Positions 7,654 through 53,536 are shown, counted from the stretch's first letter. The stretch: 64,000 nucleotides of DNA from an uncultured Candidatus Saccharibacteria bacterium (GCA_964570275.1 CAZMXN010000003.1:33165-97164); one strand, 5' to 3'. Notes: generated from the letters alone by a model not told the origin. Program-made: numbers and translations.

Positions 7654-8415
7654 ATGTCAAAGAGGGAGCAAATGAGCAGTAAAGGCCGACTTAACCTAAG
7701 TCTTGATTTTCGGTTAATAACTATAATTCTGTTGGTTGTGATCGCGGCCATGCTGGCCCTGTGGCGGCCGTGGTCGGATGGCGGTGTTTCCGACCGCACT
7801 ATTGAGGTTACGGGTGAAGCGACGGTGTCCGCCGTGCCGGACGAGTATGTCTTTTATCCGGTGTATCAGTTCCGGCATGAGGATCAGCAGGCGGCGATTG
7901 ATGAGATGAGCGCCAAAAGCGACGAGCTGGTGGCTGACCTTGAGGAGCTGGGCGTAAGCGAAAACCAGATCAAGACTTCGGCTAACGGCTACGACCGGGG
8001 CGTGACGTTTCCGGAAGCAGACGGCGATACGCGCACTACCTACACGCTGACACTGACCGTTACGGTTAGTGATTCCGAGATGGCGCAGAAGGTTCAGGAC
8101 TATCTGACCGGCACCGGACCGACCGGCGCAGTCTCACCCCAGGCAACATTCAGCGATGACCGGCGCAAAGAGCTGGAGGCGCAGGCCCGGGACGAGGCGA
8201 CCAAAGACGCCCGCGCCAAGGCTGACCAGTCGGCCGCTAATCTTGGCTTTAAAGTCGGCAGCGTTAAGTCGGTAACCGACGGCGCCGGTTTCGGTGGCGT
8301 CCAACCGCTGATCGGCCGGGCCGAAATCGCCAGCGATTCATCGGCTCGCCTTGAGGTACGTCCCGGCGAGCAGGAGCTGAACTACACGGTTACCGTGACT
8401 TACTACGTTCGATAA
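7654..8415 (+). CDS. SIMPL/DUF541 family periplasmic protein (BP26/OMP28-like)
   Basis: There is an N-terminal TM/signal. The segments IEVTGEATVSAVPDEYVF..., TYTLTLTVTV..., ELEAQARDEATKDARAKADQSAANLGFKVGSVKSV and LNYTVTVTYYV match the SIMPL domain pattern. Confidence 0.65.
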   Translation: MSKREQMSSKGRLNLSLDFRLITIILLVVIAAMLALWRPWSDGGVSDRTIEVTGEATVSAVPDEYVFYPVYQFRHEDQQAAIDEMSAKSDELVADLEELGVSENQIKTSANGYDRGVTFPEADGDTRTTYTLTLTVTVSDSEMAQKVQDYLTGTGPTGAVSPQATFSDDRRKELEAQARDEATKDARAKADQSAANLGFKVGSVKSVTDGAGFGGVQPLIGRAEIASDSSARLEVRPGEQELNYTVTVTYYVR

Positions 8416-8616
8416 GCAGCTGATACGGGTCATCCGGCAATGGCGTTTCCTCATAACCGCCCTGCAGGGCGATGTGGCCGGCCGGAATAGTCAGCCGGTT
8501 GGCGGCTTCCTGAGTGGCGGGCGGCCGCGGCCCGGTGTCAAAATCGGGGTTAGTACTTCGAGGTGATTCATCCATAACGCGCTGCTCTACATTCCTAAGT
8601 TATATAATAGCAAGAT

Positions 8617-9795
8617 CTAAAACAGATCAAGCTGGCTGATTTCTGTCGGCAAAAAGCCTTCCGGATGCTTGAAGCCGGCTTCCCATTTGGTGCCTTTCTG
8701 GTAGCCGAGGTCTTTCATGAGCCTGGTTGGGGCGTTTCGTAAGTGCAGCGGCACAGGCAGGTCCGGGTGTTGGCGGGCCGCGGCCTGGGCGCGGTTCATG
8801 GCGTCGGTAACCACCCGCGATTTTTTGCACTTTGCGAGTACGGTGGCGCAGTGAAACAGATTATACTGGCACTCCGGCATGCCGATGCGCTCGACAGCCT
8901 GGAAAGTGGCCACGGCCAGGTTCAGGGCGGGCGAGGCGGCAATGCCGACGTCCTCGCTGGCAAAAATTACCATGCGGCGGGCGATGAATTTGGGATCCTC
9001 GCCGGCTTGCAGCATGCGGGCGAGATAGTACAGAGCCGCATTGGCGTCGGAGCCGCGCAGCGACTTAATAAAAGCGCTGATGACGTTGTAGTGCGTTTCG
9101 CCGCCTTTATCATAGCCGGGGACGCGTTTTTGGGCGGCCGTTTCGATGATCTCTGGTGTGATTTTATCTTGAGTGAGCTGCAGGGCCAGCTCCAGATTGC
9201 CCAGGGCTACCCGGGCGTCACCGCCGGACAGTTCGGCCAGCAGGTCAATGCTTTTAGCCGGCAGGCGCCGGGCGGTAAGTTTCTCGGCTTTGGCAGCGGC
9301 TTTAATTATTTTGATAATATCGGCTTTGCTGAGCGGCTGGAGGACCAGGACGCGCGAGCGGCTGAGCAGGGGGTTAATGACTTCGAAGCTGGGGTTTTCG
9401 GTCGTGGCGCCAATGAGCACAATGGTGCCGTTTTCTACATGAGGCAGGAAAGCATCCTGTTGGGCCTTGTTGAAACGGTGAATTTCGTCGACGAACAGCA
9501 CGGTGGTCATGCCGAGACGCTGGTTTTGCCGGGCATGCTCGATCACCTTAACGACGTCGGCCTTGCCGGCCGTGACGGCACTCAGCTCAATGAAGTCCGC
9601 GCCGGTTTCATTGGCGATAATCCGGGCCAGGGTGGTTTTGCCGCTGCCTGGTGGCCCCCACAAAATCAGACTGGTCGGCTGCTTTTTGGCGATCAGCTCG
9701 CGGATGATCCGCCCGCTTGCCACCAGGTGTTCCTGGCCGACGACGTCGTCAAGAGTTTGCGGCCGCATGCGTTCGGCCAACGGTGTTGCCTGCAT
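8617..9795 (-). CDS. rarA: Replication-associated recombination protein A (RarA/MgsA), AAA+ ATPase
   Basis: MRPQTLDDVVGQEHL precedes Walker A GPPGSGKTTLA, Walker B LFVDEIHRFNK and sensor GATTENP. A C-terminal MgsA helical domain is present. It is short, at 392 aa. Confidence 0.85.
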   Translation of the reverse strand: MQATPLAERMRPQTLDDVVGQEHLVASGRIIRELIAKKQPTSLILWGPPGSGKTTLARIIANETGADFIELSAVTAGKADVVKVIEHARQNQRLGMTTVLFVDEIHRFNKAQQDAFLPHVENGTIVLIGATTENPSFEVINPLLSRSRVLVLQPLSKADIIKIIKAAAKAEKLTARRLPAKSIDLLAELSGGDARVALGNLELALQLTQDKITPEIIETAAQKRVPGYDKGGETHYNVISAFIKSLRGSDANAALYYLARMLQAGEDPKFIARRMVIFASEDVGIAASPALNLAVATFQAVERIGMPECQYNLFHCATVLAKCKKSRVVTDAMNRAQAAARQHPDLPVPLHLRNAPTRLMKDLGYQKGTKWEAGFKHPEGFLPTEISQLDLF

Positions 9796-9856: not shown

Positions 9857-12800
9857 TTAGACGTCGTTAGTGTCGGCCCGGCGGCGGATAATGTAGGCAA
9901 CTATGCCTACGATACCGACAATCGGTATCCACAAGTACCAGCAGAGTCCCAGGATTTTCGAACAGCTGCCGGAAACCAGATTCTCGGTTACGGCTGCGGC
10001 AATGTCGCTGCCGGTGGTAGCCGCCAGCGGCGTAACGGTTTCGTCATCGGCGGTTGTTAAGCCAAGCGACTCCTCGGCGTTGTTGGTGTCCGGAGTGCCG
10101 CCGGTACCACCGGTGCCGCCATCGGTTGTGCCGCCGGTATCGCCAGTTGACAAACCGTTCACTTCACCTCCGCCCGCTCCACCGGATGGTTCTGCAAAAT
10201 CAACCACCACTTCATCGGTCGAGTTGTTGCCGGCGCTGTCGGTGGTAGTCAGCTGGAAAGTGTAGGCGCCGAATTGATCGACAGTGACCGTCGGATTTGC
10301 GGCTGTGGAATCGCTGAAAGTAGCCGTACCCGGTCCGGCGGTTTGCGCCCAGGCATAGGTCGCGCCGGCGTCGTCGGAACTGCCGTTCAGCGCAGCCGAC
10401 TGACCAGTCACAGATTGGTCAGGTCCGGCCACAGCCGACGGCGGCGTGTTGTCGACAATGAAACTCCAAAGCGCACTCCAGAGGCTGGTATTACCGGCGT
10501 GGTCGATAGCGCGCACCTGCCATGTGTAAGCGCCATCCGGCAAAACAATGTTCGGCAAATTGTTAGCTGCGGTAGTTACAGTCGCTGCCAAATCGCTTCG
10601 AGTGTACTCAAACATGTGTACGTCCGTAGAGCCGTTGGCGTCCCATGTAAAGGTTAAAGGCGATGACGCAGACGCGTTTAGTACGCTACCGTCTGCTGGA
10701 CCTTGGAGAATAGGCGTGTTCGGTGCGATTGAATCGTAGTAGTAGTGAACCGGGGCGCTCCAGTCACTGGCGTTACCGGCAGCATCAACTGCCTGAACCC
10801 TAATAGTTACGCCACCTTGCTCGGCATCTGACGGTACGTGGTTGCGCCATGTAGTAGTGCCTGGAACAGTTCGGTATGGGCCACCTGCGAAGCCGTGTCC
10901 ATCGTCATATATGTACTCTATCCGGTAGTAGTCGATGCCGTTTGTATCGCTGGAAGCTGTCCATTGATTGAGAATCGGTGTGCTTGAGAAGTATTGCTCA
11001 TTTGCAGGCGTGGTTATTGTCGGGGCAGTAGGCGCCGCAGTGTCAACGACCACGTCGTTGTAATGGTACTTCCAGTTGCCGACTGCGTCGAAGGCCTGGA
11101 CTTTAAGACGGTAGAAGCCATCACTCAAGCCGGATACATCAAAATGCCAGTTGGTAGTACCGGATGCAGTACCGCTGTCAATGTTCCCGACATGGGTTCC
11201 GCCTAAAGCACTAATCTCAGTGACTGTGTAATTTACTTTTACCACCGAAGTCTGGTTGTCTGACGCTGTACCTTCAACAGTGAAGCTGCTGCCAGCAAAC
11301 GATTTGTCGGCTGGAGTTACCACCTGAACGGAAGGTTTAGTGTTGTCGGTAAAGAAGTGGTTGTAGATATCGGAACGGCCATTACCAACCACATCCTTAG
11401 TGAATAGCCTTAAGTTATATTGACCGTCATCAAGCGTGCTGGTGTCCAGCGTTATGGTGAGGGTGCCGCTATTAGCGTCGCCGCTATAGCTAATGGTGCC
11501 GGTGCCTGCAATCACGCTGCTGGCTCCGGTTTTGACATTGTAGGTCCAGTTGCCGGCAATGGAATTGTCCGGTCGGCGCATTACTATTTGTTGCTGGCCC
11601 AAGCCCGCACCGTTATCCGATATATCAACTTTAATTTCTACAGTGCCATTAAGGGTGGCGCCGGTTGTCGGTGAAGTAAACTGAGCTGCTTCCGGTGCGG
11701 TAGCATCAACTATCAGCTGCCATGGGGTAGTCCAGGCGCCGAAGCTGCCATCGGCGAACTTGGCCCGCACTTGCCAGTAGTAAACGCCGCCGCCCGTAGC
11801 GGAGGCATCTATCTCCGAGCCATTAACTTCAGTGGTGTAGATGGGTGAAGTCAGTGAACCGTCAGGGTTGAGCGCATTGTTGACTGCTGACTGGTACTGA
11901 TAAGCGACGGCATCGGCGACGTCTGTCCAATCCAGTATGCCGGGGCTGTTGGTCAAGGTGCCGTCGGCGGGGGATAGATGTATCGGCAGGTTGTAGAACA
12001 CTACTCGGCCCAGGCTGGCCAGATCGCCTTTATCGGTAATTTTAAGTTCGGTTTCGTCGCGCTCGCTTTGCGTCATTTCGTTGCCGGTTTTGCCATCGAA
12101 CCTGGCCTCGGCAGCGTTAAGGTTCTTAACCTGATAGTTAATGATGTGCATCAGGTCGTTGCCGGAAAAGCTGGTGTTGCCTAGATCGACCGGCGTATTA
12201 CCAGGACCGACGATGCTGTAACCCGGTGCGCCCAGAGCCTGAACGTTAGGGTCGCTGGTACCGACAATCTCAAGGCCTTTGGTGTTGTTGGTTATATGGT
12301 TGTTGCCGGTGAAAGTAACGTTTGTGATGTTGTGGCCGAAGTTGCCGGAGCTGTTGACGTTGTAGAAGGCTATTCCGGCCCAATCGTTGTTATCGGCCGT
12401 GACGTTGTTGAAAGTGTAGTCGCGCGAGTAATTGTCGCTGGCATCGAACCGGGCGGTTATGGCGAAGCCGTTTTTGCTGTAGTTGCTGGCCGTGACATTG
12501 TTAAGCGTAACTTTCCTGGTGCTGTTGAAATCGAGACCGCCCACTCGCTTCGGCGTGGTGTCAAGCCGGCCTGAGCCGTTAAAGTTCAGGTCGGTCAGAG
12601 TTAGCCGGCTGGCTTTGTAAACCTTGAAGTGGTAGCCGACAGTACTGTCAGCAGCCGGGACGGCCAGGGTCAAATTACTTAAGTCGATGTCATTTAAACC
12701 AGTTATGTCGATGCCGTAGGACTTGGTCCCGTCGGTTTCGATGACGGTGCCGGCTTGACTTTCACCGACCAGCTTGGTGCCGTGTTTGAGAAACTTCAGG

Positions 12801-14152
12801 CTTTCGGTGTAGATGCCGTCAGCGACATGGATAGTGCCGCCCTCAACGATGCGACTCATGGCGTCCTGGACTTTAGTGTAGGGATTCCAGGCGGACCCTT
12901 CGTCGCCAGTATTGCCGTTGGCTGCAGGCTGGACGTAGGTGTCAGACAGAAGTTTGATGCCACCGAACTGATTTTCGACCACGGCATCATTGTTCCGTTC
13001 ACTGATTTGAACAACCTTGCTGTCCGGGTATTCGTTAGTGCTGCCTGGGATAATCGCGATATCCAGCACGTTGCGATCAATCCCGGTGCCCCAGCTGTTG
13101 TTTCTGAAATTGATTACGGTGTCGGATAGGACGACCCAGCCTTTAGTGTGGGCGACATAGTTGTTCCTGATTTGGCCTGTAGCCTTGTCGTTGATGTAGG
13201 CGGGCTGGCGCACATGGACGAAGTCGTTGTTGCGAATGTCGAAGTCTTGAACGGTGCTTATTTCCAAGGCTCTTACAACGCTGCTGTCACCAATATTCCA
13301 TTGGCCGGTAAAGCTGTTGCCTAAGACACTGACATTGTCAGCTTGGACTTGAATCAAGTTATGTGGACCGACGTTGTCAGTTTTCTCAAACGCGATATCG
13401 CGGACTGTCGTGCCGTCGGCGGTAATCCTGAAAACCGGGTTGGTACCTGAGGTCTGGATGGTGGCGCCGCTATAACCGCGAACAGCAAGCTGCTTGTTAA
13501 TAACTATAGTAGAGGTGATAGCGTGGGTGCCGTTTAGGTGTAAGAGATCACCCGGAAAGGCCAGCGCTACCGCGTCAGCTAGCGTGTCGTAATAGAACTG
13601 CTGAGTAGCATTGAAGACCGCGTCGTGTGAAAACGATGGATTGGCAGCTTCCTTGCTGCTGACAGCTAAAATGCCGACCGACCGACGCTGACTGCTGTTG
13701 CCGCTGCTGCGGCCGTAAGTTTGCACGGCGGCCAGGCTTGGTATGTTCATTTGGTCGACCGGATCGGCGGATACACCGTCAAACAATTTAACGGTATCAC
13801 CGCTGTTGTTAAGCCAGTTGCCGCCAGCGTCAACAGCCAGGTAACCGTTGGCATTGATGACTGTACCGGCCGGCAAAACCTTCTCTTGAGTGGTGGCGTT
13901 ATCATCAAATCTTACTATCCAACCTGACACATCAGCGCCGGCTGGTCCGGCCAGCTCGACCCATTCGGTCGTTTCGTTGGAGCTAATCTCGTTAATATAA
14001 ACCGGGCTGCTCGAAAGTGCCGTAGCGGTCGACGCCGCCAAAAACGGGAACGCCGTAAGCAGGCCGCTGACTGACAGCACTAGGCTTATAAGGCCGGCCA
14101 GAAATCGGTGAATTAAGTTACTATTAGCCACCCCGTCAAGTTTGTCGCTCAT
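9857..14152 (-). CDS. Giant cell-surface protein (1431 aa) with a lamin-tail domain, parallel beta-helix repeats, Ig/FN3-like domains, a Gly/Thr-rich stalk and a C-terminal TM anchor
   Basis: There is an N-terminal signal/TM. The LTD-like segment is VYINEISSNETTEWVELAGPAGADVSGWIVRF...GTVINANGYLAVD. Many right-handed beta-helix-like N-x-T/S repeats follow (NVTFTGNNHITNNTKGLEI...). Repeated about 90-aa beta-sandwich segments contain W/Y (WQVRA..., YRLKVQAFDAVGN..., WQVRAIDHAGN...). A GGAGGGEVNGLSTGDTGGTTDGGTGGTGGTPDT low-complexity stalk precedes a C-terminal hydrophobic helix and an RRR tail. Confidence 0.7.
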   Translation of the reverse strand: MSDKLDGVANSNLIHRFLAGLISLVLSVSGLLTAFPFLAASTATALSSSPVYINEISSNETTEWVELAGPAGADVSGWIVRFDDNATTQEKVLPAGTVINANGYLAVDAGGNWLNNSGDTVKLFDGVSADPVDQMNIPSLAAVQTYGRSSGNSSQRRSVGILAVSSKEAANPSFSHDAVFNATQQFYYDTLADAVALAFPGDLLHLNGTHAITSTIVINKQLAVRGYSGATIQTSGTNPVFRITADGTTVRDIAFEKTDNVGPHNLIQVQADNVSVLGNSFTGQWNIGDSSVVRALEISTVQDFDIRNNDFVHVRQPAYINDKATGQIRNNYVAHTKGWVVLSDTVINFRNNSWGTGIDRNVLDIAIIPGSTNEYPDSKVVQISERNNDAVVENQFGGIKLLSDTYVQPAANGNTGDEGSAWNPYTKVQDAMSRIVEGGTIHVADGIYTESLKFLKHGTKLVGESQAGTVIETDGTKSYGIDITGLNDIDLSNLTLAVPAADSTVGYHFKVYKASRLTLTDLNFNGSGRLDTTPKRVGGLDFNSTRKVTLNNVTASNYSKNGFAITARFDASDNYSRDYTFNNVTADNNDWAGIAFYNVNSSGNFGHNITNVTFTGNNHITNNTKGLEIVGTSDPNVQALGAPGYSIVGPGNTPVDLGNTSFSGNDLMHIINYQVKNLNAAEARFDGKTGNEMTQSERDETELKITDKGDLASLGRVVFYNLPIHLSPADGTLTNSPGILDWTDVADAVAYQYQSAVNNALNPDGSLTSPIYTTEVNGSEIDASATGGGVYYWQVRAKFADGSFGAWTTPWQLIVDATAPEAAQFTSPTTGATLNGTVEIKVDISDNGAGLGQQQIVMRRPDNSIAGNWTYNVKTGASSVIAGTGTISYSGDANSGTLTITLDTSTLDDGQYNLRLFTKDVVGNGRSDIYNHFFTDNTKPSVQVVTPADKSFAGSSFTVEGTASDNQTSVVKVNYTVTEISALGGTHVGNIDSGTASGTTNWHFDVSGLSDGFYRLKVQAFDAVGNWKYHYNDVVVDTAAPTAPTITTPANEQYFSSTPILNQWTASSDTNGIDYYRIEYIYDDGHGFAGGPYRTVPGTTTWRNHVPSDAEQGGVTIRVQAVDAAGNASDWSAPVHYYYDSIAPNTPILQGPADGSVLNASASSPLTFTWDANGSTDVHMFEYTRSDLAATVTTAANNLPNIVLPDGAYTWQVRAIDHAGNTSLWSALWSFIVDNTPPSAVAGPDQSVTGQSAALNGSSDDAGATYAWAQTAGPGTATFSDSTAANPTVTVDQFGAYTFQLTTTDSAGNNSTDEVVVDFAEPSGGAGGGEVNGLSTGDTGGTTDGGTGGTGGTPDTNNAEESLGLTTADDETVTPLAATTGSDIAAAVTENLVSGSCSKILGLCWYLWIPIVGIVGIVAYIIRRRADTNDV

Positions 14153-14307
14153 TGCTAACCTCGCCTTTGTTCACTTAGATAAGCTTAGTATAACTAGATA
14201 GTTTGCCATTTAGCAACAAATAGTTGCTGACTTATCGTCAATCGGCCAAAAAAACCTTAGAGGGCAATGTGGGTTTTGGGGAGCGGTTCTTGTAAACTAA
14301 TAAGCGT

Positions 14308-15594
14308 ATGCTTGATAAGACCAAGTCTCTTAAACATCGATTCAGCCCCGGCAAGCGCTATGTCCGGCTGGCTTCCCGGGACGTTGCCGAGGCGCGGCAG
14401 TATATAGATAAGTACTGGGAACATCTCAAGCGGTTTCACCCAAAAGACGACGAAACGCTGCTTGGCCTGCCCAAAGCCTATCTGGTGCCGGCTTACGAGG
14501 AAGGTCACCCGTTTGACTTTAACGAGATGTATTACTGGGACAGCTATTTCATGGTTCAGGGCATGTTAAAAGCCGCCGCCAACGACGATCAGAAGTCGCT
14601 GGTCGTCGGCATCCTGGAGAACTTCGAGAGTCTGATCAGGCGCTTTCGGATAATTCCCAACGCCTCCAGGACATATTTAATGGGCCGGTCGCAGCCGCCG
14701 TTTTTGACCAGCTTGATCTTTGACATTTACGAAGCTTACGGCATGGACAAGGAGTGGCTCAAAAATAAACTGACCGTTGCCCGGACTGAGTACGAAACGG
14801 TTTGGATGGGCACCAGCAAGCCACACTGGCGCCAGGTTTACGAGGGTTTAAGCCGCTACTACGACATCAACATGCTGCACGATCTGGCCGAGGCCGAAAG
14901 CGGTTGGGATATGACACCGCGCTTCGGCCGCAAGGCGCTCGATTATCTTCCGGTCGACTTAAACGCCCTGTTATACAAATACGAAAGTGACTTCGCTCAG
15001 GCGGCTGAGCTGATTGGCGACAACACCGAGGCGCATCACTGGCATGCCCAGGCCGACAGCCGCCGTCACACCATGAATCAGCTGATGTGGGACGATGCCA
15101 GGGGCCTGTACTACGATTATAATTTCGTTAAGGGCAAGCGCGGCACGGTGGCGTCGCTGGCAACTTACTATCCGCTGTGGGCCGGTCTGGTGGACGACAA
15201 ACAGGCCAAAAAACTGGTGAAGAATTTGCGCCGATTCGAGGAAAAAGGCGGTCTGGCGACGACCGAAGCTTCGTCCCGGGACCAGCTCAACCAGCTGGTG
15301 GCTTTTCCGGGACAGTTTCCGACCCAGTGGGCATACCCCAACGGCTGGGCGCCGCTGCACTATGTGGTTATCAAGGGGTTGCAACGCTACGGTTACGACG
15401 CCGACGCCGAGCGGATTGCCCACAAGTGGCTCAAAACCAACCTCGACTGGTTTAACGAGCAGGGGGTATTTCTGGAGAAGTACAACGTCGTTCAGCCAAC
15501 CAAGCCGCCGATGAAGGGCGTGTACCCGTCGCAGACCGGCTTTGGCTGGACCAACGCCGTGTTTGAACGCCTGTGCCAGGACTTCATAGACTAG
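14308..15594 (+). CDS. Trehalase-like glycoside hydrolase (GH37 family signatures)
   Basis: Both trehalase signature motifs are present. Signature 1 appears as FDFNEMYYWDSYF (consensus PGGRFxExYxWDxY). Signature 2 appears as QWAYPNGWAPLHY (consensus QWDxPxGWAPxQ). It is short at 428 aa and has no signal peptide. Confidence 0.65.
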   Translation: MLDKTKSLKHRFSPGKRYVRLASRDVAEARQYIDKYWEHLKRFHPKDDETLLGLPKAYLVPAYEEGHPFDFNEMYYWDSYFMVQGMLKAAANDDQKSLVVGILENFESLIRRFRIIPNASRTYLMGRSQPPFLTSLIFDIYEAYGMDKEWLKNKLTVARTEYETVWMGTSKPHWRQVYEGLSRYYDINMLHDLAEAESGWDMTPRFGRKALDYLPVDLNALLYKYESDFAQAAELIGDNTEAHHWHAQADSRRHTMNQLMWDDARGLYYDYNFVKGKRGTVASLATYYPLWAGLVDDKQAKKLVKNLRRFEEKGGLATTEASSRDQLNQLVAFPGQFPTQWAYPNGWAPLHYVVIKGLQRYGYDADAERIAHKWLKTNLDWFNEQGVFLEKYNVVQPTKPPMKGVYPSQTGFGWTNAVFERLCQDFID

Positions 15595-44869: not shown

Positions 44870-44921
44870 TCGACATTTTTACTAGACCCTAACCCCTATA
44901 ACCTGTACCCTTATAAACGTA

Positions 44922-46193
44922 ATGTTTGTAGACAAAGTTGAAGTTTTGATTGCGGCCGGCAAGGGCGGCGACGGTGCCGTCAGTTTCCGGCATGAGAAAT
45001 TTATCGCCCGGGGCGGCCCCGACGGTGGTGATGGCGGCAAAGGCGGCGACGTTGTCGTGTATGCCAGCAACAACCAGAACACGCTGGCCAAGTTTCGCTA
45101 TCAGAAGCAGCTGCAGGCCGAGGACGGCCGGCCCGGCTTCAAGCGGCGCAAGCGCGGTAAAAGCGGCCAGGATTTGCGGGTGCCGGTGCCGGTGGGCACG
45201 GTTATTACTGACGAAAACGGCCAGGTCCTGGCCGATTTGACCGAAGAAGGCCAGGCAGCCGTGGTCGCTCATGGCGGCAAGGGCGGTTTCGGTAACGCTC
45301 ACTTTGTCTCCAGCACCCGTCAGGCGCCGCGGGTGGCCGAAAAGGGTGAAGAGGGCGAAGCGCTCAAGGCGGTTTTTGAGATGAAGCTGATTGCCGACGT
45401 CGGCCTGGTCGGGCTGCCGAATGCCGGTAAGTCGACGCTGCTGGCGCGTATCAGCAACGCCCGGCCTGAAATCGCCAACTATCCGTTCACGACGCTGACG
45501 CCCAACTTGGGCATGGTGGATATTGATAAGAAAACTACCCTGTTGTTTGCCGACATTCCCGGCCTGATTGCCGGAGCCAGCGAAGGCAAGGGTCTGGGCG
45601 ACGAATTCCTGCGCCACATCGAGCGCACCAGCGTGCTGGTTCATCTGATCGACGCCTATCAGGACGATGTCGCCTCCGCCTACGCCACCATCCAGCAGGA
45701 GCTTAAGAATTACCGGGTTGATCTCAGTTCCCGGCCGCAGCTGCTGGCCCTGAACAAGACCGACGGATTGGACGCTGATATTCTGGATCTGCAGAAACAA
45801 AAACTGCTGGCCGTTGTGCCCGACAAGACACCGGTGTTTGCGATTTCGGCCCAGAGCGGCCACGGGGTTAAAGAGCTGCTCTACGCCGTTAAAACCGCCG
45901 TGGCCGATTACCGGAAACGGGAAGCGGCGGCGCGGGAAGAAAGTAAAGAGCTACCGGTCCTGCGGCTAAAGGACGAGCAGGCCTGGCAGGTTAAGGCCCC
46001 GGGAGACGGCGTCTTTGTGGTCAGCGGCCAGAAAATCGAGCGGTTCGCGGCCCGGACTGATTTTTCCAATCCGCACGGGGTTCAGCGATTGCGGGACATT
46101 ATGCGCAAAATGGGCATCATGCATGAGCTGGCCCGCCAGGGCATCGAGCCCGGCGACAAAGTTCGCATCAAAGACCACACCATCGAATACTAG
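44922..46193 (+). CDS. obg: GTPase Obg/CgtA
   Basis: MFVDKVEV...GKGGDGAVSFRHEKF is the Obg fold with Gly-rich repeats. G1 is GLPNAGKST, G3 is DIPG and G4 is NKTD. A C-terminal OCT-like domain is present. Confidence 0.9.
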   Translation: MFVDKVEVLIAAGKGGDGAVSFRHEKFIARGGPDGGDGGKGGDVVVYASNNQNTLAKFRYQKQLQAEDGRPGFKRRKRGKSGQDLRVPVPVGTVITDENGQVLADLTEEGQAAVVAHGGKGGFGNAHFVSSTRQAPRVAEKGEEGEALKAVFEMKLIADVGLVGLPNAGKSTLLARISNARPEIANYPFTTLTPNLGMVDIDKKTTLLFADIPGLIAGASEGKGLGDEFLRHIERTSVLVHLIDAYQDDVASAYATIQQELKNYRVDLSSRPQLLALNKTDGLDADILDLQKQKLLAVVPDKTPVFAISAQSGHGVKELLYAVKTAVADYRKREAAAREESKELPVLRLKDEQAWQVKAPGDGVFVVSGQKIERFAARTDFSNPHGVQRLRDIMRKMGIMHELARQGIEPGDKVRIKDHTIEY

Positions 46194-46255: not shown

Positions 46256-46744
46256 ATGTCCGAATTTACGCTTAACACGGATTCATCCGACTTCATGCCG
46301 CGCAGCAGTCACGCCAATTTCGAAGAGGACACTCCGGCTGACTATGGCCGGCCGCTTCTGCCGCTGGTGCAGTACAAGCCGGTAAGTTGTGGCAACTGTA
46401 TCGGGGCCTGCTGCCGCCAGGGCCTGACCCTGTCTTTAAGTCAGGAGGAGGCTGACTTCTTAGAGGGCTCGGGTACAGAGATGGTTGAGTATCCGGGTTC
46501 ACTAGCGCATAAGATTGCGGTGCGGCTGGGCGCGCACCGGCTGTACACCCTGCAAACCGACTGCGGAAATCTCGAAATTAATTTGGATAGCGGCCAGGCA
46601 CTTTGCGCCGCTTATGAGGATTCGCGCCGTCCGGAGATATGTGCTAAGTTTGAGGCCGGTTCGGCGGCCTGTCGGATTATTCGGGTGGCTAAGGGTGTTG
46701 ATAGTCCGGCTGAGCTTGCCCGCTACGATGCAGCCACCAGCTAA
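46256..46744 (+). CDS. YkgJ-family (UPF0153) Cys-rich putative Fe-S/zinc cluster protein
   Basis: The motif is CGNCIGACC plus a downstream CxxxxC...C. Length is 162 aa. Confidence 0.5.
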   Translation: MSEFTLNTDSSDFMPRSSHANFEEDTPADYGRPLLPLVQYKPVSCGNCIGACCRQGLTLSLSQEEADFLEGSGTEMVEYPGSLAHKIAVRLGAHRLYTLQTDCGNLEINLDSGQALCAAYEDSRRPEICAKFEAGSAACRIIRVAKGVDSPAELARYDAATS

Positions 46745-48236
46745 AGGGTTTGTGCAGGGCCAGTTTTTCGCTTACCATTACTGCTTAGTGGTAAGTTTTT
46801 ATTTTTACGATCTGGAAACCAGCGGCTTCAACCCCCGGGATGCCCGGATTATGCAGTTTGCCGGCCAGCGGACCGATATGGAGCTTAAGCCCGTCGGCGA
46901 ACCGCACAATTTCTTAATCAAAATGACCGATGACGTTGTGCCTGATCCGGACGCCGTGCTGGTTACCGGCATCACCCCGCAGGCCACGCTGACCGACGGG
47001 CTGACCGAAGCCGAATTTTTGAAGATTTTTTACGAGGAAATCGCTACTGCCGGCACCATCTTCGTCGGCTTTAACAGTATCCGGTTTGACGACGAGTTCA
47101 TGCGCTTTTTGCATTACCGCAATTTTTACGACCCCTACGCCTGGCAGTGGCAGGACGGCCGCAGCCGTTGGGATTTGCTGGATGTCGTCAGGATGACGCG
47201 GGCGCTTAGGCCCGAGGGCATCAAATGGCCGGTGGACAGTGAGGGCAAGCCCAGCAACCGGCTGGAGCTGCTGACCTCGCTCAATAAACTGGAGCATTCG
47301 AGCGCGCACGATGCGCTAAGCGATGTTAAGGCCAGTATTGCCGTTGCCCGGCTGATCCGAAATAAGCAGACTAAACTGTTCGACTATCTTCTCGGTATGC
47401 GTGACAAGCAGAAGATCGCCGAACTGGTGAATGCCAATCAGCCGTTTGTGTACAGCTCGGGCAAGTACCCGGCCGAGTACGAGAAGACGACCGTGGCAAT
47501 GACCTTAGGTAACCACCCCAGGAAACAAGGCGTCCTGGTCTTCGACTTGCGGCACGATCCGGCCGACTACATCAACTTACCGCCGGAGCAGCTGGTTGAA
47601 TTATGGCGCTACAACCCGGACCGCGAAGCGCCGCGGCTGCCGGTCAAAACCCTGCAGTTTAACCGCTGTCCGGCCATCGCGCCGCTGGGCGTGCTTGATA
47701 AAGCCAGCCTGGACCGGCTTCATCTGGATCTCAAAATCATTGAAAAACACCGCCGAAAACTGGCTGGTGCCGGGAAATTCAGCGGGAATCTGCTAAAGGC
47801 CATAGAACTACTGAACCGGGACCAGCAAAGCAGTATGTGGAGCAAGGAAACCGAAGTTGACGGGCAGTTGTATGACGGCTTTGTGCCGGACCGCGATAAG
47901 CCGACGATGAGTGCCATCCGGGCGGCCGCGCCGGATGAGCTGGCCGGTATCGGCGAAGCTCTGCTGGACCCGCGGCTTAAGACGCTGCTGCCGCTGTATA
48001 AAGCCCGGAACTTCCCGAAGAGCTTGACCAATGAGGAGCGGCAGACCTGGGAAGCCTTTAGGACGAATCGCCTGCTGGCAGGCAAAGAAAAAAGCCGGCT
48101 GGCGGGTTATTTTAAGCGGCTGCAGGAGCTGGCGGCCCGGCCGGATCTGTCTGACGATAAGCGCTACCTGCTGGAAGAATTGCAGTTGTACGGACAATTG
48201 ATTATGCCGGAGGCAGATGAGTCGGGCGGTTTTTAA
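46728..48236 (+). CDS. sbcB: Exodeoxyribonuclease I (SbcB)
   Basis: FYFYDLETSGFNPRDARIMQFAGQR is the DEDDh exonuclease Exo I motif. ...HSSAHDALSDVKA is Exo III. SH3-like and C-terminal helical domains are present. The start is uncertain: the ATG at 46728 overlaps the previous gene by 17 nt, and an in-frame GTG at 46788 is an alternative. The long track ORF beginning at 46515 is rejected. Confidence 0.75.
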   Translation: MQPPAKGFVQGQFFAYHYCLVVSFYFYDLETSGFNPRDARIMQFAGQRTDMELKPVGEPHNFLIKMTDDVVPDPDAVLVTGITPQATLTDGLTEAEFLKIFYEEIATAGTIFVGFNSIRFDDEFMRFLHYRNFYDPYAWQWQDGRSRWDLLDVVRMTRALRPEGIKWPVDSEGKPSNRLELLTSLNKLEHSSAHDALSDVKASIAVARLIRNKQTKLFDYLLGMRDKQKIAELVNANQPFVYSSGKYPAEYEKTTVAMTLGNHPRKQGVLVFDLRHDPADYINLPPEQLVELWRYNPDREAPRLPVKTLQFNRCPAIAPLGVLDKASLDRLHLDLKIIEKHRRKLAGAGKFSGNLLKAIELLNRDQQSSMWSKETEVDGQLYDGFVPDRDKPTMSAIRAAAPDELAGIGEALLDPRLKTLLPLYKARNFPKSLTNEERQTWEAFRTNRLLAGKEKSRLAGYFKRLQELAARPDLSDDKRYLLEELQLYGQLIMPEADESGGF

Positions 48237-48245
48237 GCCGGGTTT

Positions 48246-48416
48246 TTAAAGCGCCAGATCAAGATCGGTTAGAGCGCGGGACTGGGCCTTGTGCCGCTTA
48301 AATATCCGGTGAACCTGGACTATGCCAACCAGACCGGCAGCCAGCAGCACCACCGTATTAAAATCCAATTGATAATTAAGTCCGGGCACTTCGCCCAGGA
48401 CTATGAATTCCAGCAT
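48246..48416 (-). CDS. Possible small hydrophobic protein (56 aa), not in the ORF track
   Basis: The minus-strand ORF encodes MLEFIVLGEVPGLNYQLDFNTVVLLAAGLVGIVQVHRIFKRHKAQSRALTDLDLAL. It has one predicted TM segment and sits in the sbcB/PGPGW intergenic region. Confidence 0.2.
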   Translation of the reverse strand: MLEFIVLGEVPGLNYQLDFNTVVLLAAGLVGIVQVHRIFKRHKAQSRALTDLDLAL

Positions 48417-48945: not shown

Positions 48946-49051
48946 TATGCGGTTAATTATACCGGTCCAACGGTTGTTTAGAAAACAATAGCGTTTTTTG
49001 GTGGCTGGCTGTTACACTACGGTTAATGATCTAAGATGAGGAGACAAAAAC

Positions 49052-49996
49052 GTGGCAAACGGCGGCTATCGGGGTAGTTTACTAAAAATGCATAAACCCC
49101 CGGGCGACAAGCCGAGACGCAGCGGCGCCAGCTTCGAAGGCCAGCCGGCCCCGGCGCCTAAGCGACAAATGGGCATGTGGATCGGGCGGATGATTTCCGC
49201 GGCGGTGCCGGAATTTGCCAATCTGGAAAGGTACGTGCGGGAAACGGCCGAGGCTAACGCCGCCTGGCCGGTAGAGGCTGACAGAATGGCCGAAATCCTG
49301 GCCCGGCCCCGAACCGAAACACGCGGCAATTATTACATTGAACCCCGGCAGTTTACCGCCGAATACCTGTCCGGTTCGCTTGGCAGCCTGATCGTAGAGA
49401 GAGAATGCAGTGACTCGAGAGGGAATCTGATCAAGCCGAATGTAGTGAAAAGAAGACTCAGGTCAATATCCGGCCAATACGCCCAGCATATTAAAAAACG
49501 GGGCTTTGACCGCAACCGGCAGGCGCTGGATCAAAGCGGCTTGCTGGTTATACCGGCTGGCGGCGAAAGCCCCTCGCCCGATATGGACCCGGCCACCGCC
49601 CGGCTGCGGATGCACGGCGGTATCTTCGAGGTCAGCCCCAAGCTCCGGCCGTTCGGTGAGGGTAACCGGTTTGGTTTCCGTTTGAGCGGGGTGGCGGTTG
49701 ACTTTCTGCGCCAGGACCGCGATAACGCCGTGGATTTCTTTCTGGACAAGTTGGGTATCAGGCAGCTTGACACCGATCTGGAAGAAATGGTTCATGATAC
49801 CAGCCCGGCTGACATTGAAGTTTTCTACAATGGCATAGACGCTTCCAATCCATATGAGATACAATATCCGCAGTCGAAAGAAGATGGTGCTGGTGGGGTT
49901 TTCCCCGGGAACATGACATTTTTAGACCCGGTAATGAAAGTGGTAGACATTCCAGATGGCGACAGAACAAATAGAGATTTTCTATCGGGTCAGTGA
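49052..49996 (+). CDS. Hypothetical protein (314 aa), first gene of an overlapping two-gene module
   Basis: There is no recognisable motif. The gene has patchy lower-GC segments. Its 3' end overlaps the next ORF by 41 nt in a different frame. Confidence 0.4.
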   Translation: MANGGYRGSLLKMHKPPGDKPRRSGASFEGQPAPAPKRQMGMWIGRMISAAVPEFANLERYVRETAEANAAWPVEADRMAEILARPRTETRGNYYIEPRQFTAEYLSGSLGSLIVERECSDSRGNLIKPNVVKRRLRSISGQYAQHIKKRGFDRNRQALDQSGLLVIPAGGESPSPDMDPATARLRMHGGIFEVSPKLRPFGEGNRFGFRLSGVAVDFLRQDRDNAVDFFLDKLGIRQLDTDLEEMVHDTSPADIEVFYNGIDASNPYEIQYPQSKEDGAGGVFPGNMTFLDPVMKVVDIPDGDRTNRDFLSGQ

Positions 49997-50681
49997 CCCC
50001 GGCGCGGGTGAGTTTCTTGGTATTCTGAATAATCACGTCGAGCGCGAGTTGCCGCGGGTGTCCGTAGGTTCAACGACTGAGATTGGCGTGGCGCTGGACG
50101 AAGAGGGCCGAACCGTCGTAGTGGAAAGGGAGCGGTCGATAGGCCGGACGGCTTTGATGCCGACAGATGCCGACGGCCGCTTCAAAATACATCTGGCGCT
50201 GGTCTCTTCCAGCCGGGAACGGGGGCTGATGCGGGCTTATTCGAACATGACTACTTACCGCCAAAAGCGGGCCCGCGGGGGTGTGGAGCCGGAACCCCTG
50301 GTGCCCTGGGGTATCAAGGGTTTAAAATCCTATCTGGCCGAGAACTACCCGATCAGGGCGCTGACGTTTTCCGATTTCAGGCTGGGCAGTTCAAAACACC
50401 TGGACCGGCCGGTCCTGCTTGAGCTCGATCCGTCGGCCGAATCAACAGAAGCTTTCATTGAGGCTCAGACTGTGGTCATGAGCGCTTTGGCTAAACTGTG
50501 TCACCCTAAAAGAGGCGATATGATCAGAGCAAATTCGTTCTGCAGGCTCGGTACTTTAAATGCCAGAAATACGCCCGAAACAACTCTAAAAGCCTTCGAA
50601 AGCAGGATGCGGTTCTGGCTGGCGGACGAACCGCAGACTTGGGCGGTTAGCGAACCGGAGGTTAGGCACCAGGTCAGCTAG
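49956..50681 (+). CDS. Hypothetical protein (241 aa), second gene of the overlapping module
   Basis: There is no recognisable motif. It begins inside the 3' end of the upstream ORF, in the +1 frame. AT-richer stretches occur near its start and end. Confidence 0.4.
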
Positions 50682-50722
50682 CCGACTGGAATCTTTATCT
50701 GTTTTCGTGTATAATTGTTCGC

Positions 50723-53536
50723 TTGATGAACGAGTTTATTTCCGTTAAAGGTGCCCGGGAACACAACCTGAAAGACATCGACGTGGAGATTCCGCGCGGT
50801 AAATTGGTGGTGATTACCGGGTTGTCCGGGTCCGGTAAATCCAGCCTGGCGTTTGATACGATTTATGCCGAAGGCCAGCGCCGCTATGTCGAGTCGCTCA
50901 GCTCCTATGCCCGGCAGTTCCTGGGGCTGATGGAAAAGCCGGATGTTGATCAGATTGACGGGCTGAGCCCGGCCATCAGCATTGATCAGAAATCGACCAG
51001 TCGAAATCCGCGCAGTACGGTGGCAACTGTGACAGAAATCTATGACTATCTGCGCCTGCTGTTCGCCCGGATCGGCGTGCCGCATTGCCCGGTCTGCGGC
51101 CGGGCGGTTGAGCGGCAGACTACCCAGGCCATCGTCGATCAGGTAGCCGAATACCCGGCGGGCGCCCGGCTGATGATACTGGCGCCGGTTGTTATCGACA
51201 AAAAAGGTGCGTTCGAGCACATCCCGGAGCAGTTTCAGCGGGCCGGCTTCGCCCGGGCCCGGGTCGATGGCGTGGTCTATGCCCTGGATGAGTTCCCGGA
51301 GCTAGATAAAAACTACAAACACTCCATTGAAATTGTCGCCGACCGGCTGGTGAATGACGAAGCCTCCCGCGGCCGGCTGGCCCAGAGTGTCGAGCAGGCG
51401 CTGGATCTGGCCGACGGCAAGCTCAAGGTCTGGAACGCCGACGACGACAGCGAGCGGTCGTTCAGCCTGATGTATGCCTGTATCGATCATCCCGACGTGG
51501 CCATTCCCGAGCTGGAGCCGCGGACATTCAGCTTTAACAGCCCGCACGGCGCCTGCCCGGTGTGTACCGGGCTTGGTTCGCGTCTGGAGGTTGATCCGGA
51601 GCTGGTAATTCCGAACGGCCGGCTGACCATCGCCGAAGGCGCTATCCGGCCTTTCAACCGCTTCAACGCCGACGCCTGGTACACTAAGAAAATGCAGGCC
51701 GTGGCCGAGCGTTACGGCTTCTCGCTGCATGTGCCGACCGGTGAGCTGAAGGATGTTGATCTGGAGCGCATCCTGTACGGTACCGGCAATGAAACGTATC
51801 GGATCAAACTCGGTCCGGGCCGCTCGTTTGCCACCACCTACGAAGGGGTCATTCCCAACCTGGAGCGCCGCCACAAGGAGACCGAGAGCGATTTTATGCG
51901 CCGTGACATCGAGCGGTTTATGCAGGAGCGGCCGTGTCACGCCTGCAAGGGCCGCCGCCTCCGGCCGGAGGTTCTGGCCGTGACAGTCGCCGACCGTTCG
52001 ATCATGGATATTTGCGAACTGTCAATCGACGAAGCCAACAAGCTGTTTGGCAGCATCAAGCTGAGCGAAAAAGAGAGTCAGATCGCCAAACAGATTTTCA
52101 AAGAAATCTGCGCCCGGTTGAAGTTTATGCAGGACGTCGGCTTGAATTATCTGAGCCTGGCCCGCAGCGCCGCCACACTGTCCGGCGGTGAAGCTCAGCG
52201 TATCCGCCTGGCCACGCAGATCGGTTCCGGCCTCCAGGGCGTGCTGTATGTTCTGGACGAGCCGTCGATCGGTTTGCACCAGCGCGACAACGAGCGGCTG
52301 ATCAACACGCTAAAACACCTGCGCGACTTAGGCAATACGGTCATGGTGGTCGAGCACGACGAGGACACCATCCGCACGGCCGATTATCTGCTGGATATCG
52401 GACCCGGTGCCGGCGTGCACGGCGGCGAGATCGTTGCCCGGGGCACTCCGGAAGAGGTCGCCAGGGTTGAAGACAGTATCACCGGCCAGTTCCTGCGCGG
52501 CCGGCGTCAAATTGCCGTCCCGAAAAAGCGCCGTTCCGGCAACGGCAAATCGCTGCTCATAAAAGGCGCCCGCGAAAATAACCTTCAGAGCATTGACGTT
52601 GAAATACCGCTGGGCAAAATGGTGGTGGTCAGCGGCGTGTCCGGATCCGGCAAGTCCAGTTTGATCAACGATATTCTGGCCAAAGAGCTGTCGGCCCGGC
52701 TGATGCGCGCCAACATGGTGCCCGGCCGGCATGACGACATCGAAGGCATCGACAATCTTGACAAGGCGATAATCATTGACCAGTCACCGATCGGCCGGAC
52801 GCCGCGGTCCAACCCGGCGACTTACACCGGCCTGTTCACGCCGATCCGCGAACTTTTCGCCAGCATGCCGGAAGCCAAGCTGCGCGGTTATTCGGCCGGC
52901 CGGTTCAGTTTCAACGTCCGCGGCGGCCGCTGTGAAAACTGCGCCGGCGACGGTATTATCAAAATCGAGATGCACTTTCTGCCGGACGTTTACGTGCCGT
53001 GCGAAGTCTGTCACGGCAAGCGCTATAACCGCGAAGCGCTGGAAATCCACTACAAAGGCAGGACCATCAGCGACGTGCTGGCAATGACCTGTGAAAGCGC
53101 GCTGGAGTTCTTCGGCAATATCCCGGCCATCGCCCGCAAGCTGCAAACCCTGGTTGACGTTGGTCTGGGCTATATCACCCTGGGACAGCCGGCAACCACG
53201 CTGTCTGGCGGTGAAGCCCAGCGCATCAAGCTGGCTACCGAACTGTCGCGGCGCTCGACCGGCCGGACATTGTACATCCTGGACGAGCCGACGACCGGTC
53301 TGCACATTGCCGACGTCGATAAGCTGCTCGGCGTGCTGCACGCCCTGGTCGACACCGGCAACAGCATGGTGATTATTGAGCACAATCTGGACGTTATAAA
53401 ATCGGCCGACCATGTGATTGACATGGGTCCGGAGGGCGGCAGCGGTGGCGGCAAAGTCATCGCTACCGGTTCGCCGGAGCAAATCGCTAAAAACGCCAAC
53501 TCCTACACCGGCCGGTTCTTAAAGAAAATCATCTAA
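50723..53536 (+). CDS. uvrA: Excinuclease ABC subunit A (UvrA)
   Basis: There are two ABC ATPase modules: [12 protein letters not shown]...[12 protein letters not shown]...[12 protein letters not shown] and [12 protein letters not shown]...[12 protein letters not shown]...[12 protein letters not shown]. Zinc-finger Cys clusters ([20 protein letters not shown]...CEVCHGKR) are present. Length is 937 aa. Confidence 0.95.

Follow-up and report, generated by a model that had tools for sequence, protein, structure and literature searches.

An overlapping gene pair between sbcB and uvrA in Saccharibacteria is predicted to adopt the 2H phosphoesterase fold

Two overlapping open reading frames (ORFs), ORF1 and ORF2, lie at positions 49052-50681 of a 64,000-nucleotide (nt) stretch of DNA from an uncultured Candidatus Saccharibacteria bacterium (GCA_964570275.1 CAZMXN010000003.1:33165-97164; this whole stretch is called the window here). 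In this study, we analysed the pair computationally. The best explanation overall, which we hold with moderate confidence, is that the pair represents a 2H enzyme translationally coupled to a pseudo-2H partner, and that it would be catalytically dead in this genome. We are highly confident in the evolutionary and architectural account as a whole, in which two separate genes are kept at one site across ten lineages. The features of the pair are as follows (lengths in amino acids, aa).

49052-49996, plus strand: ORF1, 314 aa, GTG start (ORF call)
49956-50681, plus strand: ORF2, 241 aa, ATG start (ORF call)
49956-49996, plus strand: ORF1/ORF2 overlap of 41 nt, ORF2 in the +1 frame relative to ORF1
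49039-49043, plus strand: Shine-Dalgarno sequence AGGAG, 8 nt 5' of the ORF1 GTG (read from the sequence)

The initial annotation had described two ORFs of 314 and 241 aa overlapping by 41 nt in different frames, and these coordinates were borne out. Since a GC-rich window (57.4%) yields long spurious ORFs, coding potential was scored by a codon model whose training set was 24 confidently called window genes. ORF1 scored +0.19 and ORF2 +0.07 bits per codon, the called frame was the best of six for both, and the other five frames scored -0.06 or lower. Housekeeping genes scored higher (+0.35 to +0.55), and ORF1 and ORF2 resembled other window genes that have no Pfam match. The coding signal changed frame at about 49900-49950. 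A promoter scan of the region upstream of ORF1 found no consensus promoter. ORF1 and ORF2 are genuine genes. Long antisense ORFs of 212-324 aa were also seen within obg and uvrA (44889-45863, 51302-51940 and 52784-53482, all on the minus strand). They were rejected as high-GC artefacts, including the 324-aa ORF in obg, as the sense frames scored far higher; ORF length alone is no proof of a gene in this window.

Homologues were sought with HMMER by searching 1.84 billion cluster representatives exhaustively, with ORF1 and ORF2 concatenated as the query. Two small families emerged: ten proteins resembling ORF1 (296-311 aa; E 3e-20 to 3e-5; 22-32% identity) and four resembling ORF2 (239-241 aa; E 4e-18 to 1e-9; about 30% identity). 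A word-indexed protein search returned near-identical strain copies only. The 314 + 241 architecture was identical in two independent Logan assemblies, and three assemblies of the species agree on it. Matches to two repeat proteins of about 1050 aa, P0021 and P0023, ran through short low-complexity or repeat segments and were judged spurious. P0021 (1044 aa), helicase-like by eye, carries six tandem repeats of about 55 aa (...DPDEKRLGxWIxxQM...) that weakly match ORF1 residues 36-89 (KRQMGMWIGRMI) with E 1.5e-5 summed over the repeats.

We examined the genomic context of the pair in nine other lineages (L019, L020, L021/L022, L023-L025, L026, L027, L028, L029 and L030). In all nine, ORF1 and ORF2 were adjacent, on the same strand and overlapping. 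The site was also constant as far as the contigs reach, in the order sbcB, a small ORF in some, a gene for a PGPGW membrane protein on the minus strand, ORF1, ORF2 and uvrA; the PGPGW gene was not called in L021/L022, L029 and L030. Between lineages, the copies of ORF1 and ORF2 shared 22-41% identity, sbcB 54-61% and uvrA 80-94%. Judged from these sequences, ORF1 and ORF2 appear to be a fast-evolving accessory gene pair restricted to Saccharibacteria.

The overlaps in the nine other lineages, in order from L019 to L030, were 20, 20, 20, 11, 8, 23, 14, 11 and 26 nt. Every one of them, and the 41 nt of the window as well, equals 2 modulo 3, and the +1 frame relation is therefore ancestral. In L019, L020 and L022, the ORF1 stop is the TGA inside CTTGA(G/A), which supplies Leu-Glu codons of ORF2. 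The window reads ATAGAG (Ile-Glu) at this site and its ORF1 extends by 7 codons; its 41-nt overlap arose because the ORF1 stop at the 20-nt-overlap position of the relatives was lost. In all five junctions that were read, the ORF2 ATG lacks a preceding Shine-Dalgarno sequence, and ORF1 has one. Since ORF2 lacks this signal, we infer that it would be translated by termination-reinitiation coupled to ORF1.

The active-site motifs of the ORF1 family were examined in an alignment of 11 representatives, the window included. A proximal motif, LH[IV]Txx[YF], and a distal motif, H[AV][TS][LV][IL][RK], were found, each with its His in 10 of the 11 representatives. Among the ten His-bearing homologues, the proximal Thr was present in 7 and the distal Thr or Ser in 9. 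The two His-x-Thr/Ser motifs of the 2H superfamily are thus present in the ORF1 family and absent from the window's own ORF1. Both motifs fall on beta-strands predicted by AlphaFold2 (window residues 102-106 and 254-260). In Escherichia coli ThpR, the corresponding motifs are 43-HxTxxF-48 and 125-HxTxxR-130, and the mutants H43A, T45A, H125A and R130A are inert (PMC4201822). The extended motifs of the ORF1 family match this ThpR type, and this evidence from the alignment does not depend on the structural models. In the window they read as follows.

49355-49372, plus strand: proximal 2H motif in degenerate form, TAEYLS (residues 102-107) in place of the family pattern HxTxx[F/Y]
49811-49828, plus strand: distal 2H motif in degenerate form, DIEVFY (residues 254-259) in place of the family pattern Hx[T/S]xx[R/K]

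The window's ORF1 therefore has T102 and E104 at the HxT positions, D254 and E256 at the Hx[T/S] positions, and S107 and Y259 at the F/Y and R/K positions. Where ThpR has His43, Thr45, His125 and Arg130, it carries T, E, D and Y, and it is the only family representative without the two histidines. Two sister-strain assemblies differ from the window in ORF1 elsewhere, at residues 112, 167 and 225, so the substitutions that removed the histidines are common to them. Since all four ThpR-equivalent residues were lost, the window's pair is predicted to be without 2H catalysis; it would act by binding alone or be under relaxed constraint.

A rival reading is that the pair is decaying in this genome, with selection relaxed after the loss of the catalytic residues and both genes pseudogenes-to-be though still intact. 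Both His motifs were lost in the window lineage only, and the window's ORF1 is also the most divergent member of its family (28-30% identity to the others, against 31-41% among the others). The loss of the ORF1 stop that three relatives have at the 20-nt overlap, and a GC content at third codon positions (GC3) and a codon score below those of the neighbours, would fit this as well. Compared with the sister strain, 4 of 7 substitutions in ORF1 and ORF2 were non-synonymous, against 1 of 15 in uvrA and 1 of 14 in obg, numbers that are too few to be decisive; seven substitutions are also too few to estimate the ratio of non-synonymous to synonymous rates. However, both frames are open over 555 codons in total, and the AlphaFold2 models are confident. 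The family motifs FGxGNxFG, [ED]R and LDP are kept in ORF1, as are WGxxG and LxF in ORF2, and ORF2 is not a divergence outlier in its family. We consider decay unlikely, while giving it some weight.

Structures were predicted with AlphaFold2 and compared using Foldseek. The ORF2 model, built from a 5-sequence alignment, had a predicted local distance difference test score (pLDDT) of 80 and a predicted template modelling score (pTM) of 0.75. Against the PDB, 16 of its top 17 matches were named 2H phosphodiesterases at probability 0.60-1.00, and the best was Usb1 (5v1m; E 9.7e-4, probability 1.0). Usb1, AKAP18, the penguinpox cyclic GMP-AMP (cGAMP) phosphodiesterase (PDE), the PDE of phage BCSR5 and plant CPDase all matched at probability 0.94-1.00; Bacillus subtilis YjcG matched more weakly. 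The bilobed alpha+beta fold of the 2H superfamily is thus seen in a predicted model from a shallow alignment. The ORF1 model, built from the family alignment, had pLDDT 75 and pTM 0.69, with residues 1-33 predicted to be disordered. Its better PDB matches were weak and mostly 2H proteins (Usb1, Atu0111, ASCC1, AKAP18, CPDase, LigT and the VP3 PDE), mixed with unrelated structures lower down (E 0.26-6). In BFVD, it weakly matched DUF1868, phage G gp240 and Acb1. The structure-based search proposed in the initial annotation thus returned a clearly 2H-like ORF2, and weak matches below significance for ORF1. These results make a 2H phosphoesterase fold rather probable for both proteins.

In the ORF2 family, no conserved His column was found in a 10-sequence alignment that included the window, so that the two-His motif is missing from the family. 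Its conserved positions are LxxYY, P, R, A, KxxL, WGxxG, LxF, FxxAQ and PxxxxVG. Together with the predicted fold, this family is best described as a putative 2H-fold pseudo-enzyme.

The initial annotation had noted no recognisable motifs, and neither ORF matched Pfam, NCBIfam or PADLOC. The same holds for the families: Pfam, NCBIfam, PADLOC and PHROGs gave nothing significant for the window proteins or any family member. The Pfam family LigT_PEase reached E = 0.22 for one of the 11 ORF1-family members, and the ORF2 family gave nothing. Sequence-profile searches of the PDB with the families gave chance-level matches only. In hhalign, the ORF1 family aligned with two canonical Saccharibacteria 2H proteins exactly at the LHxT motif, at E 0.044, which is not significant; the sequence-profile support for 2H kinship is anecdotal. 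The ORF2 family showed no significant relation to canonical Saccharibacteria 2H proteins in hhalign either. No significant relation was found between the ORF1 and ORF2 families using hhalign, and paralogy of the two therefore cannot be claimed. A segment "IE[VI]FY" common to ORF1 and ORF2 in BLASTP was attributed to chance. By predicted fold, and for the ORF1 family also by its motifs, the pair probably belongs with the 2H superfamily.

From these results we propose the following function. ORF1 and ORF2 are separate, probably coupled genes of an accessory operon long seated between the PGPGW gene and uvrA, and probably lost in many Saccharibacteria lineages. In most lineages that have it, the protein of about 300 aa keeps both ThpR/LigT-like motifs, HxTxx[F/Y] and Hx[T/S]xx[R/K]. 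Its substrate for hydrolysis would be a phosphodiester, cyclic or 2',5'/3',5', carried by an RNA end or a nucleotide, and the protein would most likely be a 2',3'-cyclic phosphodiesterase. The protein of about 240 aa would have the same fold without catalytic residues and serve as a binding or regulatory partner. It would be made in step with ORF1 through termination-reinitiation, and the two would probably form a heteromeric pair. We put forward this cyclic-phosphodiesterase and partner mechanism tentatively, and rate it somewhat below an even chance.

Several observations weigh against the explanation of the pair as a coupled 2H enzyme and pseudo-2H partner. Three of the 10 ORF1 homologues that bear the histidines lack the proximal Thr or Ser. 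The fold match of ORF1 is below significance, with best E 0.07-0.26 and template modelling (TM) scores of 0.26-0.43, and only 2 of the 5 ORF2 models, all from 5 aligned sequences, were confident. No sequence-profile method linked either family significantly to any 2H family; membership of the superfamily was thus not recovered from profiles, and the window proteins lack its active site. In the four genomes with a readable spacer, a separate TATAAT box for uvrA follows ORF2. Conserved gene order is also no proof of a functional link to uvrA or sbcB when genomes are small and stable.

A different chemistry for the same fold would be the degradation of nucleotide second messengers, such as 2-5A-like or cyclic oligonucleotides, in conflict or signalling rather than in the healing of RNA ends. 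The penguinpox cGAMP PDE, the Burkholderia phage BCSR5 phosphodiesterase, the rotavirus VP3 PDE and Acb1 are all among the Foldseek matches. However, the viral and phage PDE matches were no better than those of Usb1, AKAP18 and CPDase, and the extended motifs of the ORF1 family are of the ThpR type. The pair also had no phage, plasmid, PHROGs or PADLOC match and no defence-island neighbourhood. We regard this alternative as improbable.

A functional link of the pair with the repair genes sbcB and uvrA is possible from its position alone. An extended version of this idea, which we rate as quite improbable, is that a Saccharibacteria-specific heterodimer of 2H enzyme and pseudo-enzyme processes damaged nucleic-acid ends with ExoI and UvrA, and that the window variant has been repurposed. 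If this were true, the damaged ends handled would be, for example, 2',3'-cyclic or 3'-phosphate termini. The T-x-E and D-x-E form in the window would then be non-catalytic or differently catalytic, and not decaying.

The initial annotation had suggested a horizontally acquired accessory or defence-type module placed in a housekeeping neighbourhood. One part of this held, as the two genes are additional to many relatives. The order obg, sbcB, PGPGW (minus strand), uvrA, dedA (minus strand) was kept in 16 species-representative loci of related Saccharibacteria, and hidden Markov models of the ORF1 and ORF2 families found no match in any of the 16. In 8 of these loci, the PGPGW gene lies about 65-130 nt from uvrA with nothing between them. 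Compared with the genomes without the pair, the intergenic region between the divergent PGPGW and uvrA genes is about 1.7 kb longer in the window. On a neighbour-joining tree of sbcB, the pair-bearing genomes form two groups interspersed with pair-less ones, and the short internal branches make this pattern not robust. This absence from 16 related genomes, where PGPGW abuts uvrA, the patchy distribution on the sbcB tree and the low GC3 would be expected of a horizontally acquired module.

Its other predictions did not hold. The pair occupies one insertion site across 10 lineages, with copies only 22-41% identical, and its GC content has ameliorated to each host: it is 0.44-0.50 in low-GC relatives and 0.56 in the window (0.44-0.57 overall). 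At the module locus, no tRNA, flanking direct repeats or Rfam match was found, nor any integrase or mobile-element signature. Searches of viral contigs (2.9 million), phage records (50,697) and PHROGs detected no homologue, and a plasmid tblastn was also empty. PADLOC gave no defence-model match for either ORF or any family member, and the neighbourhood is not a defence island. With GC at the window mean and the same site in 10 lineages, the pair does not look like a genomic island or mobile element. Pairwise identities were considered as a test of vertical against horizontal inheritance, and were set aside because sbcB, ORF1 and ORF2 are all near saturation and give no discrimination. The simplest reading is that the pair is old, was inherited mostly vertically and was lost repeatedly. 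Recombination between Saccharibacteria at the locus is possible. A horizontally acquired accessory or defence module is very improbable.

The patchy low GC noted in the initial annotation was confirmed only weakly. The GC content of the module is 0.566, close to the window mean of 0.574 and to that of sbcB (0.565). A dip at about 49721-50040, with a minimum of 0.465, ranks among the lowest 3% or so of 200-nt windows, but its place is the junction of ORF1 and ORF2; from their positions, which were not tabulated, most other low-GC stretches also seem to fall where genes meet. A second dip, at 0.505, is among the lowest 9.5% or so and is unremarkable. The GC3 of ORF1 and ORF2 is 0.62-0.64, below the 0.70-0.78 of the neighbours. 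Thus, GC3 and codon score deviated from the neighbours, and overall GC did not. The lower GC3 fits a weakly expressed gene lagging behind the genome's shift to high GC.

It had also been suggested that ORF1 and ORF2 are one gene broken by a frameshift, whether as a pseudogene, a sequencing error or a programmed +1 frameshift yielding a fusion protein; the constant +1 relation and an ORF2 ATG without Shine-Dalgarno sequence are compatible with this, but it can practically be dismissed, because the orthologues are all two separate proteins of about 300 and 240 aa with no single continuous ORF in any related genome, the N-terminus of ORF2 (Met-x-x-x-x-L-x-x-YY) is conserved, the point at which ORF1 ends shifts with respect to ORF2 (8 to 41 nt of overlap) and leaves no conserved slip site, and the three assemblies agree on 314 + 241. 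The GCT TGA stop context is not known to act as a +1 slippery site (prfB-type).

The neighbours were as described in the initial annotation, with sbcB and the PGPGW gene upstream and uvrA downstream, as supported by Pfam matches.

Upstream of ORF1: exonuclease I gene sbcB, with the Pfam domains RNase_T and Exonuc_X-T_C
Between sbcB and ORF1, minus strand: PGPGW membrane protein gene, 26 bits against a cutoff of 23.3
Downstream of ORF2, start at 50723/50726: uvrA, 937 aa, with an 83%-identical orthologue bearing the UvrA Pfam domains

The sbcB relatives place the window in Saccharibacteria/Saccharimonadia (TM7; candidate phyla radiation, CPR). The genes obg, sbcB, uvrA, dedA and rplY are neighbours in all genomes, and this neighbourhood is unchanged whether the pair is present or absent. 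Just downstream of sbcB, a conserved 56-aa ORF with the look of a small membrane protein (MLEFIVLGEVPG; 48246-48416, minus strand) was found. Its N-terminal motif ML[EN]FIVLGxxPGT was present in almost all Saccharibacteria loci examined by tblastn, with or without the module. At the other end of sbcB, a Cys-rich 162-aa ORF without a Pfam match (46256-46744) overlaps the sbcB start by 17 nt. In two relatives that carry the module, a canonical 192-aa 2H protein with the motifs LHVTV and PHFSL is encoded between obg and sbcB (L030:5039-5617 and L022:5559-6134, plus strand); the window has no such gene after obg and carries the Cys-rich ORF there instead. A relative without the module, L005, has a different 251-aa ORF (8336-9091, plus strand) directly 5' of its uvrA (L005:9161). 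This ORF had a match below the cutoff to the Pfam family 2_5_RNA_ligase2 (PF13563; E = 0.002). Its sequence includes PHISIGR as well as PSAESAEA, where ORF2 has PSAESTEA; hhalign found no significant relation between it and the ORF1 or ORF2 family.

Further observations were made at other genes of the window and its relatives. The uvrA start codon follows a perfect TATAAT box (50710-50715) after just 7-10 nt, a spacing that suggests a leaderless uvrA mRNA in the window. The relatives share a [TGC]TATAAT box, but with a spacer of about 30-45 nt to the uvrA start, and L023 and L026 have a Shine-Dalgarno sequence there. In sbcB, 13 of the 24 differences from the sister strain L001 fall within 70 nt (47543-47612), and 11 non-synonymous changes were counted overall; the patch could be a recombination tract or a hypervariable patch. 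In the ENA contig of L026, uvrA is called as three consecutive genes of 521, 165 and 274 aa (11698-14510), which probably represent assembly frameshift errors or a pseudogenised uvrA. A 1431-aa ORF at 9857-14152 (minus strand) has an atypical GC content of 0.53/0.47/0.62 by codon position and a codon score of +0.20, akin to the module, and may be another fast-evolving, lineage-specific gene.

We found no paper linking 2H phosphoesterases with Saccharibacteria. For two ORFan families of Saccharibacteria that lie outside all curated libraries searched, the present analysis proposes a fold and a chemistry that are probable, and offers a testable hypothesis for a piece of CPR "dark matter". Its significance is modest, because systems of this kind are already known and nothing points to a role in defence or mobility. 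The analysis also brings out a recurring architecture, in which a His-bearing 2H protein would be coupled to a His-less 2H-fold partner.

Among known systems, ASCC1 carries the 2H phosphodiesterase domain of the ASCC-ALKBH3 alkylation-damage complex and is tied to the nucleic-acid damage response (PMC11214414). The ASCC1 structures 8tuk and 8tly are among the ORF1 matches, and the pair sits between sbcB and uvrA. However, ASCC1 is eukaryotic and has a KH domain, and the repair link of the pair is its gene neighbourhood only. The viral and phage 2H PDEs (poxvirus cGAMP PDE, 9bkq; BCSR5, 9q2y) resemble the predicted fold of ORF2 at probability 0.97-1.0, and Acb1 and phage G gp240 are weak ORF1 matches; unlike them, the ORF1/ORF2 pair is chromosomal, syntenic and lineage-restricted. 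Usb1, the central domain of AKAP18 (AKAP7) and plant CPDase gave the best structural matches of ORF2 (5v1m, 5jj2, 2vfk and 1jh6) and also head the match list of ORF1. The ORF2 family differs from them in having no conserved His, with an identity of 8-12% and TM scores of 0.4-0.6, and it shares no context with U6 small nuclear RNA processing (Usb1) or protein kinase A anchoring (AKAP18). The RNA 2',3'-cyclic phosphodiesterase ThpR/LigT (E. coli ThpR, 5ldm/5ldq) resembles the ORF1 family in its motifs on predicted strands, and LigT structures are among the ORF1 fold matches. The ORF1 family gave no significant sequence-profile match to it. Unlike ThpR/LigT, which has about 176 aa, ORF1-family proteins have about 300 aa, with an N-terminal tail predicted to be disordered and a long helix inserted at residues 129-161, and their gene is always paired with a second gene of predicted 2H fold. 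The window's ORF1 differs further in lacking all four key residues, and this copy would be a natural active-site knockout that can be compared with its intact homologues.

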